A DNA stretch of 64,000 nt from Escherichia phage mistaenkt: sequence record MN850587.1. The stretch is one strand, 5' to 3'. Of the stretch, positions 40,169 to 58,406 are shown piece by piece. A program made the position numbers and the translations under genes. The notes under the pieces were generated by a model. It was not told where the DNA came from and did not search any database. It saw only the letters and a program-made list of their open reading frames with translations. Each line of letters opens with the position of its first letter. Positions within the stretch are counted from its first letter, which is position 1.

Positions 40169-41281
40169 TTAGTCTTGTGGTGCAGCGTCAGAACGAACGT
40201 CTACCAGCAACTGAGGACGTGTGCAGTATGGCAGCATGTAAGAGTGAGCTTCGAAGTCAATACCTTCGTCACGGTCTTTTTCGTATTCGAATACATACAG
40301 TTCCTGACCAAGAGTATTTGCGTAACCCATCTTCGGACATGGGCCATATGCAACTTCGAAGATGTTGTTAGCTTCACCCAACATAGAAACGTTAGGGAAC
40401 GCATGACCAACACCTACAGTGTTTGCTACGCCGTCGATGCTTACCAGAACGTGAGTCTTACCACGCTTATCTTGGAACTTACCGTTGTACTGAACGAACT
40501 TCACACCACCGTAGTAGAATGTGTTCATGTGAGCCTGAACTCCATCAGTACCACCAGTTCTCAGAGAGCCAGTAATCTGCTGCCAAGCCAGCGGAGTCTG
40601 CTGTGCAAGGTATGCGTCACGAATCTTCGGATGCTTGATAAGCTTGCTGAAGAACAGACGGTCAACAACAATGTGAATTTCTTCACCGTTGATTACAGTA
40701 CCAACTTTAGCTTCATCTTCCATGTGCATACGAAGTTCTTCGATAGCAGCGTCGATATCAGCGTTTGGATTGTCAAGGTCGAAGTAAACAGTCTTCTTCT
40801 CAACGTCGAACTGCTTGAACAGGTCAGCGTACAGAACACCGTTAGCGTCGATTACTTTACCCTTCAGAGCTTGCATGAACAAGAACTCACGAGTAATATC
40901 GAACTTGGTACGAATCTTCATCAGCTTACGAGCACGAACGATAGCTTCAGTAGTCAGTTCGTTTGCAGTGCCTGGCTGACGTACACCCTGAATCTCATCA
41001 GGAGTAATGCTTTCCACTTCCTTGAAGTACATCATTGGGAAGCTAATCTGCTTAACTCTTTCTGGAGCACTCGTCTCAGCTTTACGGCTGGTACGGTCTA
41101 CTGCATCCAGTAAGCTAATGTCAGACTCAGTTAAATCCATCAGGAAAGTAGTCTGAGTAATTGGGGCAGAACGGAAAAGACCCAAACCGGAAATATAACC
41201 GTAAGTATTTGGGATAGACTGGACTTCACCAGTCAGGTCAGCAAGGAAAAATCTGCTTTTTTCAGAATTAGTTAATGCCAT
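40169..41281 (-). CDS. Major capsid protein
   Basis: 370 aa, downstream of protease/scaffold and a small decoration-sized gene; position and size. Confidence 0.65.
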   Translation of the reverse strand: MALTNSEKSRFFLADLTGEVQSIPNTYGYISGLGLFRSAPITQTTFLMDLTESDISLLDAVDRTSRKAETSAPERVKQISFPMMYFKEVESITPDEIQGVRQPGTANELTTEAIVRARKLMKIRTKFDITREFLFMQALKGKVIDANGVLYADLFKQFDVEKKTVYFDLDNPNADIDAAIEELRMHMEDEAKVGTVINGEEIHIVVDRLFFSKLIKHPKIRDAYLAQQTPLAWQQITGSLRTGGTDGVQAHMNTFYYGGVKFVQYNGKFQDKRGKTHVLVSIDGVANTVGVGHAFPNVSMLGEANNIFEVAYGPCPKMGYANTLGQELYVFEYEKDRDEGIDFEAHSYMLPYCTRPQLLVDVRSDAAPQD

Positions 41282-56867: not shown

Positions 56868-56888
56868 CGGGGCGAAAGCCCCTTTTTA
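56868..56888 (+). terminator. Intrinsic terminator GGGGC-GAAA-GCCCC plus T5
   Basis: Perfect 5-bp GC stem, GNRA-type loop, T-run. Confidence 0.7.
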
Positions 56889-56906
56889 ATTATTTAAGGA
56901 TAGATA

Positions 56907-57281
56907 ATGAAGGCGAAGAGTGGAAAAGACTTTTACTGCTTCCTACAATCCTATGTACAAACAATTGAAGAAGGCGAGAGATATAATCTTGAAGATGTTA
57001 TCCCAACTCCTTTGACGTGGCACACTAGTAAATGGCCTGAAACGGATATCCAACCAACCACTGCAACCTTCAAATACACCCCTAAAATTGACCTACCAGA
57101 TTCTGAGGGATTACTCTACCCAATGTTTCACATTGTCGGTCTAGGCACTTTCCTCATGGATATTCAGTATGTGATGGGTAAGGGATATAAAATCGAAGGT
57201 GTAGTTCTTGGTGATGTTTCTCCGCAACACAAAGGCTACTTCAGATTAAATGCAAGATTAGAGGCTAATAAAAATGATTAA
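56907..57281 (+). CDS. Hypothetical protein (124 aa), paralogue of the N-terminal part of the next gene
   Basis: Shared blocks with 57274-57906: LTWHTSKWPETDI / LTYSSPWPEADI and FLMDIQYVMGKGYKIEGV / FFMDLQYAIINGKDVDTV. Confidence 0.5.
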   Translation: MKAKSGKDFYCFLQSYVQTIEEGERYNLEDVIPTPLTWHTSKWPETDIQPTTATFKYTPKIDLPDSEGLLYPMFHIVGLGTFLMDIQYVMGKGYKIEGVVLGDVSPQHKGYFRLNARLEANKND

Positions 57282-57906
57282 GGCAAAAACATATCCAGAC
57301 TTCAAAGAGTTCGTTAAAGGTTTTATTGCGAACGTTAAAGCTGGTAAAAGATATGACTTCAGAACATATCAGGAAGCTATTCTCCCACTGACTTACAGTT
57401 CACCTTGGCCTGAAGCAGATATTGCAGAGGTGACCAACTTTGCTTATGAGCCAGCCTATACAGTCCCATTCAGTCCAGAACTTCTATACAGTGTTGGCGC
57501 TCAAATGAGAACTGCTGATTTCTTCATGGATTTGCAGTATGCAATCATCAACGGTAAAGATGTTGACACTGTTTACTGTGAATGGCTTGCAAGAGTTAAA
57601 CCCTTCTCAATGCTTAACGCAAAACTGAAAGATTCTGTAGTTCCTCCAGTAATAACTACACAGCCACAAAACGTTGAAATCACTGAAGGTGAGACTCTTG
57701 AGTTGAGCATCGTGGCTACTGGAGCAACTGGTTACCAGTGGAAGAAAGGTGCTGACAACATCTCTGGAGCAACTTCAGCAACTTACACTAAAGAGAATGC
57801 AACAACTGCTGACGATGCCGGAACATACACTTGCGTAGTTACTGGTGCAGGTGGTTCTGTGACTTCTAACGCAGCTACTGTTGTGGTTAACGAAGTAGGA
57901 GGTTAA
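57274..57906 (+). CDS. Protein with C-terminal Ig-like domain (210 aa)
   Basis: C-terminal PPVITTQPQNVEITEGETLELSIVATGATGYQWKKGADNISGATSATYTKENATTADDAGTYTCVVTGAGGSVTSNAATVVV is a typical Ig-like pattern; N-terminal part paralogous to 56907-57281. Confidence 0.5.
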   Translation: MIKAKTYPDFKEFVKGFIANVKAGKRYDFRTYQEAILPLTYSSPWPEADIAEVTNFAYEPAYTVPFSPELLYSVGAQMRTADFFMDLQYAIINGKDVDTVYCEWLARVKPFSMLNAKLKDSVVPPVITTQPQNVEITEGETLELSIVATGATGYQWKKGADNISGATSATYTKENATTADDAGTYTCVVTGAGGSVTSNAATVVVNEVGG

Positions 57907-57908
57907 TA

Positions 57909-58373
57909 ATGCAACTCTCTGATAAGGGGCTTGCAGCAATTAAGTTCTTTGAAGGGCTTCGTCTAGAAGCCTATAAAGACTCTGCTGGAATCCCAACAAT
58001 CGGGTACGGTACAATCCGTATTGGTGGTAAACCCGTTACGATGGGTATGAAGATTACTGCTTCACAAGCTGAACAGTATCTGCTTGCAGATGTTGAAAGC
58101 TATGTTGGTGCAGTGAACAAAGCTATCAAGGTTCCAACTTCTCAAAATGAGTTTGATGCTCTCGTTGTAGAAACTTACAATATCGGTATCACAGCTATGA
58201 GAGATTCCACTTTCATCAAGCGTCACAATGCTGGTAACAAAGCTGGCTGTGCTGAAGCTATGCAGTGGTGGAATAAGGTAACAATCAATGGTAAGAAAGA
58301 AGTTTCTAAGGGTCTGCAAAACAGACGCCGTTTAGAAGCAAAAATTTATCTTGACGCTGTTTATCCGAAATAG
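57909..58373 (+). CDS. Endolysin, phage lysozyme (glycoside hydrolase family 24-like muramidase)
   Basis: 154 aa; N-terminal LAAIKFFEGLRLEAYKDSAGIPTIGYGT matches the catalytic E...D...T region of GH24 phage lysozymes. Confidence 0.85.
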   Translation: MQLSDKGLAAIKFFEGLRLEAYKDSAGIPTIGYGTIRIGGKPVTMGMKITASQAEQYLLADVESYVGAVNKAIKVPTSQNEFDALVVETYNIGITAMRDSTFIKRHNAGNKAGCAEAMQWWNKVTINGKKEVSKGLQNRRRLEAKIYLDAVYPK

Positions 58374-58381
58374 TAGATTTA

Positions 58382-58406
58382 GAGGCTCCTTCGGGAGCCT
58401 TTTTTA
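58382..58406 (+). terminator. Intrinsic terminator GGCTCC-TTCG-GGAGCC plus T6 after the endolysin gene
   Basis: Perfect 6-bp stem, tetraloop, T-run. Confidence 0.8.

Follow-up and report, generated by a model that had tools for sequence, protein, structure and literature searches.

Two decoration proteins of Felix O1-like phages, gp20 of phage Sf14 and the hexamer decoration protein (Hex-Dec) of phage Bas63, were solved by cryo-electron microscopy in 2025 (PDB 9C2D, 9C3A, 9NCF; PMC11821841, PMC12609058). Their capsid-binding domain (CapBD), formed by the N-terminal ~118 residues and folded into two pseudo-C2 lobes, occupies as a monomer the centers of only the 60 edge (pentamer-proximal) hexamers of a T = 9 head (PMC11821841, PMC12609058). 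In Sf14, R79 and R107 form salt bridges to D221 of the major capsid protein (MCP) (PMC11821841). One to four Ig-like domains point outward, and a function like that of Hoc has been proposed (PMC11821841, PMC12609058). The present analysis concerns a stretch of 64,000 nucleotides (nt) of Escherichia phage mistaenkt (MN850587.1), hereafter the window, and in it two adjacent open reading frames (ORFs) on the plus strand, A (56907-57281) and B (57274-57906), both present as the first-pass annotation had placed them. Judged by its sequence, B is the ortholog of Sf14 gp20 and Bas63 Hex-Dec, hence an already known protein; as another one-Ig allele of a protein solved twice in 2025, it adds nothing new. 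What is new is that most Felix O1-like phages carry a second CapBD protein, A, which is conserved, expressed late and devoid of Ig-like domains.

The assignment of B is straightforward. In a phmmer search of the PDB, it matches Bas63 Hex-Dec (9ncf_S, 460 amino acids (aa)) with E = 3e-184 and Sf14 gp20 (9c2d_S and 9c3a, 372 aa) with E = 6e-159, residues 1-207 aligning end to end; among the PHROG families, it matches phrog_3995 at 6e-120. The C-terminal Ig-like domain announced by the first-pass annotation is real: residues 124-205 score 39.1 bits for Ig_3, 33.5 for I-set and 32.3 for Ig_2, beyond the respective Pfam gathering cut-offs of 30, 23.7 and 27 bits. R79 and R107 are kept in B and in all aligned intact orthologs, the sole exception being the frameshifted P0093. 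This NCBI protein of 209 aa, from a 109-kb contig, has a normal CapBD and the start of an Ig-like domain followed by unrelated sequence, which suggests a frameshift in a Hex-Dec gene or an error of sequencing. On the side of the capsid, the D221 equivalent (in the motif KIRDAY) is conserved in the MCP of the window, the ortholog of Sf14 gp34, which matches 9ncf_A and 9c2d_A at E ~1e-235. Furthermore, orthologs of B have been found by mass spectrometry of virions, namely Felix O1 gp36 with 44% coverage (PMC3185647) and Sf14 gp20 (PMC11821841).

B almost certainly functions as published for gp20 and Hex-Dec. It would bind the capsid through the same R79/R107 anchor as these orthologs, at ~90% identity, and would by orthology sit as a monomer on the edge hexamers of a T = 9 capsid. 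The gene lies on the strand opposite to the main structural module, near the lysis gene, a position that the first-pass annotation considered to be at odds with a virion decoration. The decoration itself holds for B, whose gene is found ~15 kb from the capsid genes. The location, however, is no anomaly, since a decoration gene apart from the structural genes is a conserved and published feature of Felix O1-like phages (PMC3185647, PMC12609058); in Bas63, the gene of one decoration protein lies >10 kb away from the structural module (PMC12609058). As a capsid protein with solved orthologs, B is unrelated to lysis.

The names given to these genes in the databases are of practical concern, both A and B being widely mis-annotated as 'tail protein'. 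In GenBank and UniRef, their homologs go by the name of 'tail protein' or 'major tail protein', and PHROG 3995 is categorized as tail. For B, this label is known to be wrong, the misannotation of Hex-Dec having already been pointed out by the Bas63 authors (PMC12609058). On A, it seems to have been propagated by similarity.

A and B are tandem paralogs, as had been proposed from the letters alone. Their pairwise similarity is significant (BLASTP, 33% identity over ~120 aa, E = 4e-16) and is accompanied by reciprocal PHROG cross-hits, from A to phrog_3995 (5e-15) and from B to phrog_4463 (3e-14), as well as by a phmmer match of A to 9c2d_S in the PDB (E = 1e-13). The family of A itself is phrog_4463 (3e-74). 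It comprises 51 protein clusters with 72-98% identity, in which all full-length members measure 122-124 aa, next to a few shorter fragments. No Ig-like display domain is present in A, which ends at residue 124 without a Pfam domain, and none of the 51 clusters exceeds this length. The orthologs of A are Sf14 gp21 and Felix O1 ORF37, each directly upstream of the decoration gene.

The 3 kb surrounding the pair have matches in 252 phage records, and all classified ones are Ounavirinae (Felixounavirus, Mooglevirus, Suspvirus). By tblastn, ~234 of these are hit at two positions, in agreement with the presence of A plus B, and ~18 have B only; A is present in ~93% of these related genomes. A and B were verified to be adjacent in 23 of the 24 IMG/VR loci that have the neighboring gene U as anchor, and in CHB7, Sf14 and Felix O1. 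A is also carried by two relatives whose B has four Ig-like domains (L021 and L026).

The AlphaFold2 model of A, built from an alignment with distant relatives, reached a predicted local distance difference test (pLDDT) value of 81 and a predicted template modeling score of 0.80; with close orthologs and B sequences only, the pLDDT was 62. When the model was compared with the PDB using Foldseek, only 9c2d_S and 9ncf_S were significant (TM 0.71-0.74). According to this model, A keeps the CapBD fold. The anchoring residues are different: the position of R79 is G in every A ortholog, and the position of R107 holds Q or D, according to where the gaps are placed, and never a basic residue. The two lobes also behave differently. 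Among A orthologs of three genera, 73% of lobe 2 (residues 69-120; PMFHIVGLG...GDVSPQHKGYF) is invariant, and its identity to B is 31%; for lobe 1, the values are 58% and 43%, respectively. The best-conserved part of A is thus the one that least resembles B, a pattern that speaks for an old fold bearing a new surface under constraint, and not for decay.

Selection was measured as pairwise Nei-Gojobori ratios of nonsynonymous to synonymous substitution (dN/dS) over 24 genomes. The ratio is 0.13 for A, compared with 0.04 for the CapBD of B, 0.13 for Ig1 of B, 0.08 for U and 0.09 for the endolysin. With a mean dS of ~0.75 for A (about 0.75-1.2 across the three genera), the A protein is under purifying selection and evolves faster than its paralog.

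A has been lost naturally in some genomes. REP5, Tf, EcF-vB and the locus L008 share an A remnant of ~192 nt (Table 1), in which the start codon ATG has become ATA and ~180 nt are deleted internally; the indels differ between genomes, and the 3' end with the ribosome-binding site of B is retained. These remnants represent one ancestral loss in a Felixounavirus sublineage, ~7% of records, from which it follows that A is dispensable for propagation. In the Salmonella phage SP3_SHan-2021 (MW296865.1 54543-55421; L002:2501-3379), a single gene of 292 aa replaces both A and B. It is of the A type in residues 1 to ~47 and of the B type from there on, with two Ig-like domains, the two parts being joined at the shared WPExDI block. 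Such a chimera occurs in no other of the 252 records and may reflect either a genuine unequal crossover or an artefact of assembly.

A lineage that kept only the 3' end of A with the ribosome-binding site of B, and a genome with an A/B chimera, are what one would expect if A were a decaying or non-functional duplicate, or an upstream cistron setting the translation of B with an irrelevant protein sequence. Such an explanation is nevertheless very improbable and is largely refuted by the selection analysis, as the low dN/dS of A is maintained at the synonymous distances separating three genera. The ORF is, moreover, intact at 122-124 aa in nearly all 51 clusters and in 23 of the 24 anchored loci, lobe 2 is highly invariant, and the A/B pair is retained in a much more divergent phage described below.

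The presence of A in the virion can be judged from published proteomes and structures. The mass spectrometry of Felix O1 virions lists gp36 and not gp37, though four proteins of 9.7-13.7 kDa were detected (PMC3185647). The asymmetric unit of the Sf14 capsid contains only gp34, gp33 and gp20, although Sf14 has an intact gp21 (A), and gp21 is absent from Table 1 of structural products of the same paper (PMC11821841). Likewise, A is not among the chains of the Hex-Dec and gp20 PDB entries. For phage VpaE1, the published text implies, indirectly, only gp54, gp58 and gp68 beyond the Felix O1 virion set; the paper on phage wV8 deals with the tail fiber alone. In the maps of Sf14 and Bas63, no density was reported on the other hexamers (PMC11821841, PMC12609058). 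This absence from lists and maps, which is not the outcome of a test aimed at A, argues against a stoichiometric second decoration by A. Neither structural paper mentions A or includes it in its capsid model; the words 'paralog' and 'duplication' do not occur in them, and gp21 is never mentioned in the Sf14 one. A full-text literature search combining Ounavirinae, decoration protein and paralog gave no match. The Ig-less paralog thus apparently went unremarked in the literature.

A could still be a second decoration of low copy number or labile attachment, which, without an Ig, would cap the sites left free by B, either the 20 facet-center hexamers on the 3-fold axes or the portal-adjacent hexamers. 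It would then have escaped notice because it was averaged out by symmetry, sparsely bound or lost in the CsCl purification. The whole CapBD fold is kept in A, its expression is late along with B and the morphogenesis genes, and the altered, conserved lobe 2 could fit the different D221 geometry at true 3-fold hexamers (Sf14, PMC11821841). We consider this unlikely, given that the Sf14 and Bas63 papers report no density on the other hexamers, that A is missing from the Felix O1 virion list despite the detection of similarly small, low-copy proteins, and that G stands in place of the basic anchor R79.

The expression of the pair is documented in Felix O1. There, by reverse-transcription PCR, ORF36 (B) and ORF37 (A) reach their maximum at 60 min, as do the portal, tail and fiber genes; for the flanking ORF35 (lysin) and ORF38 (U), the maximum falls at 25 min (PMC3185647). 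Because of this shared 60-min peak, A can be regarded as transcribed as a late gene with B. That both are later than their two flanks implies an unrecognized late promoter or a regulated read-through at the first hairpin. This hairpin, between U and A, has a stem conserved in all relatives; it and the hairpin behind the endolysin gene correspond, respectively, to the terminators t38 and t35 annotated in Felix O1 (PMC3185647). At the level of translation, the stop of A and the start of B overlap by 8 nt (57274-57281). In Felixounavirus and Mooglevirus, stop and start overlap as ATGA, and an overlap of the two is kept in all lineages. Together with the Shine-Dalgarno sequence of B inside A, the 8-nt overlap suggests translational coupling of the two genes.

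A programmed frameshift that would fuse A to B was considered and rejected: the reading frame of B is +1 with respect to that of A, and no canonical slippery site precedes the overlap. An A_AAA_AAG-like string in Felixounavirus was discarded as a slippery site as well, the shift giving the wrong frame.

As the first-pass annotation had seen, the pair lies directly upstream of the endolysin gene (Table 1), whose product is a GH24 phage lysozyme (PF00959, 5e-39). A thus shares with the endolysin a tight block bracketed by terminator-like hairpins, no holin has been identified beside the Felix O1 lysin (PMC3185647), and lobe 2 is far from B yet highly conserved among A orthologs. These observations would suit the recruitment of A to a job unrelated to the capsid, host-directed in the late phase or concerned with lysis timing, the paralogy with B being only historical. 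This remains doubtful in our view: A has no predicted transmembrane helix, its timing follows B and not the adjacent lysin, and all lineages have kept the overlap of its stop with the start of B. Nor is there a match for A in Pfam, NCBIfam or PADLOC; searched for a curated family or a defense or anti-defense annotation, these three returned nothing for U either. A holin or membrane role of A was rejected on its hydropathy, the maximum KD(19) of 1.38 staying below 1.6. The hydrophobic stretch of A corresponds in the alignment to the core helix of the CapBD, a soluble domain.

The duplication is old. In a neighbor-joining tree, the A clade and the B clade are each recovered in 200 of 200 bootstraps, with congruent internal branching, and a divergent 87-kb metagenomic phage shows the same order U-A-B-lysozyme with an A at ~43% identity; the age is deduced from these two facts. 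Its direction was addressed with more distant relatives. Among 1.84 billion representative proteins searched with a profile, only 12 family members were found, the five most distant of which (P0099-P0103) have profile E values of 7e-10 to 7e-5. P0099 and P0100 consist of a CapBD plus Big_2, P0102 of a CapBD plus a Big_2-like domain, and P0103 of a CapBD plus an Ig-less, K/S-rich tail; P0101 has a CapBD plus one I-set Ig, in a different gene context. P0099, P0100, P0102 and P0103 are encoded in the loci L032, L039 and L035-L038. In four of the five distant lineages, a single CapBD gene directly follows the U homolog, its C-terminal extension already present, and in the loci L037 and L038 it also precedes a lysozyme gene. 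No A-type gene was found at the same locus in these four lineages where the context is visible.

It is therefore more likely that the ancestral gene already bore a display module and that A would be the derived, truncated copy. The proposal of the first-pass annotation that the second gene had gained its Ig-like domain is probably backwards, since the outgroups are single genes combining CapBD and display module. As the root of the tree is weak (monophyly of A plus B against P0099/P0100 obtains 8 of 200 bootstraps), the derived state of A is argued from synteny. Directly upstream of the distant P0101, an ORF of 141 aa (L033:1739-2164) begins with MLKAKQYDSFEEL, which resembles the N-terminus of a CapBD. 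It reaches only 2.8 bits against the family profile and may be an independent Ig-less paralog.

The number of Ig-like domains in B changes much more readily. In the 24 IMG/VR loci and the GenBank relatives, B is 210, 294, 377 or 461 aa long, corresponding to one, two, three or four Ig repeats. The one-Ig form is common, most of the 43 B clusters being of ~210 aa. Compared with gp95 of CHB7, which has two Ig repeats, the B of the window has an identical CapBD and an exact in-frame deletion of 252 nt, with the junction in the repeated linker PPVITTQP; the remaining Ig is Ig2 of CHB7 (85 of 90 residues). To judge from this junction, an Ig1 of the CHB7 type was removed by recombination within the linker. 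The exact repeat deletion indicates that the repeat number changes by unequal recombination, and the B of this phage did lose one Ig in comparison with its closest two-Ig relatives.

The explanation that we favor, with a probability of roughly 60%, is that of an old tandem duplication in which B is the working decoration and A a late accessory protein, non-virion or transiently bound, with a capsid-related partner. In such a scheme, the hexamer decoration gene of a Felix O1-like phage would have been duplicated in tandem to give A and B. The CapBD of B would fill the 60 edge hexamers at their centers, with R79 and R107 holding it to MCP residue D221, and the Ig-like domain of B would project outward like those of T4 Hoc, probably for weak surface adhesion or particle-particle interactions. 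A, a complete CapBD without display domain, would be co-transcribed late with B and probably coupled to it in translation. It would have kept the fold but given up the R79 anchor for another residue and acquired, in lobe 2, an altered surface that is strongly conserved in its turn. The best guess for its partner would be the hexamers of the unexpanded procapsid, the facet-center hexamers or B itself. We infer for A a role in tuning decoration or assembly, helpful without being essential, rather than in forming a stable second decoration; its predicted capsid-related partner belongs to the same inference.

Several points weigh against this explanation. The loss of A in ~7% of genomes makes any role of this protein dispensable in the laboratory. 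The alignment near R107 is gap-ambiguous in A, where a neighboring conserved K109 remains. The placement of A outside the virion is deduced from its absence from published lists (the top 17 proteins of Felix O1, Table 1 of Sf14 and, indirectly, VpaE1) and not from a test aimed at A. In Bas63 itself, A is only putative, even if it is found in the four-Ig relatives L021 and L026. Finally, a monomer on a 3-fold hexamer or at a unique vertex would be smeared by symmetry averaging.

A more specific version, which we hold to be rather unlikely, has A recognize a state or a site of the capsid that is closed to B, as a placeholder or a regulator of occupancy. Candidate sites would be the skewed hexamers of the procapsid, the 20 facet-center hexamers and the symmetry-breaking hexamers around the portal. 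If true, the occupancy by A would explain why Hex-Dec is found on only 60 of 80 hexamers, and decoration would be subject to a new, paralog-based control.

The window belongs to a Felix O1-like phage (Ounavirinae, Suspvirus-like). For the 3-kb stretch around A and B, the nearest matches are the Salmonella phage PC79-13 (97%) and the phages CHB7, SUSP1 and SUSP2 (93%). The structural module is located on the minus strand, at ~24-47 kb, and is separated from the block of U, A, B and endolysin by an array of 24 tRNA genes at 47.4-53.6 kb. These tRNA genes (47417-53618, minus strand) are interspersed with small ORFs and are followed by a DUF2828/vWA 'RNA-binding protein' gene (53785-55200); an array of this kind is typical of Felix O1-like phages. 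The plus-strand block is preceded by a divergent intergenic region, and U always precedes the CapBD gene or genes. The coordinates are collected in Table 1.

Table 1. Features of the A/B locus and related elements; positions refer to the window unless a locus is named.
Feature	Position	Strand	Description
Major capsid protein (MCP)	40169..41281	-	Predicted binding partner of B; D221 equivalent (KIRDAY) conserved
Gene U	56271..56861	+	196 aa; phrog_4034; function unknown; served as synteny anchor
Terminator-like hairpin	56869..56887	+	GGGGC-GAAA-GCCCC, then TTTTT; between U and A
Shine-Dalgarno-like AAGGA	56896..56900	+	6 nt before the ATG of A; read from the sequence
ORF A	56907..57281	+	124 aa, 14.2 kDa; phrog_4463; Ig-less paralog of the Hex-Dec CapBD
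Shine-Dalgarno of B, GAGG	57261..57264	+	Within the 3' end of A; read from the sequence
ORF B	57274..57906	+	210 aa; Hoc-like decoration protein of the Hex-Dec/gp20 type, by orthology; CapBD plus one Ig-like domain
CapBD of B	57274..57633	+	Residues 1-120
R79 codon of B	57508-57510	+	Within the CapBD
R107 codon of B	57592-57594	+	Within the CapBD
Single Ig-like domain of B (I-set / Ig_3)	57643..57888	+	Residues 124-205; counterpart of Ig2 of CHB7 gp95
GH24 endolysin	57909..58373	+	154 aa; begins 2 nt past the B stop
Strong terminator-like hairpin	58381..58402	+	9-bp stem, then T run; closes the A-B-endolysin block
A remnants	L003:2306-2497 (REP5); L008:4592-4783; L041:706-897 (Tf); L042 (EcF-vB)

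Felix O1-like phages are used for Salmonella typing, therapy and biocontrol. In this group, A offers an experimental handle on the question of why Hoc-like proteins choose particular hexamers. The CapBD, for its part, is a modular anchor that nature has fused to I-set Ig, Big_2 or disordered tails, which is relevant to phage display on these heads.

Among the known systems, Sf14 gp20 and Bas63 Hex-Dec are the closest to B. Their CapBD is ~90% identical, R79, R107 and the D221 of the MCP are kept, the Ig repeats are of the I-set type, and the gene is placed between U/A and the endolysin. The Ig count differs, with one in B, three in Sf14 and four in Bas63. A, in contrast, shares with them only the CapBD, at ~33% identity, and has neither Ig nor R79 anchor.

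T4 Hoc resembles B as a monomeric, non-essential decoration at hexamer centers, carrying a string of Ig-like domains (PMC11821841, PMC12609058), and is likely its functional analog. The capsid-binding domain is, however, C-terminal in Hoc and N-terminal in B, and the CapBD fold of Hex-Dec has been described as larger than that of Hoc and topologically distinct (PMC12609058). Membership of B in the Hoc family was rejected, as the similarity to Hoc-like PHROG families covers only the Ig domain (residues 127-205). To our knowledge, no Ig-less paralog of Hoc is known. The decoration protein pb10 of phage T5 (PDB 5LXK) matches B in the Ig-like domain only (5lxk_A, E = 1.8e-7, residues 133-205), and no CapBD homology was detected between the two. 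The metagenomic proteins P0099-P0103 have a homologous CapBD, mostly at the same locus; they differ in their display module, and each is the product of a single gene without an A-type paralog.

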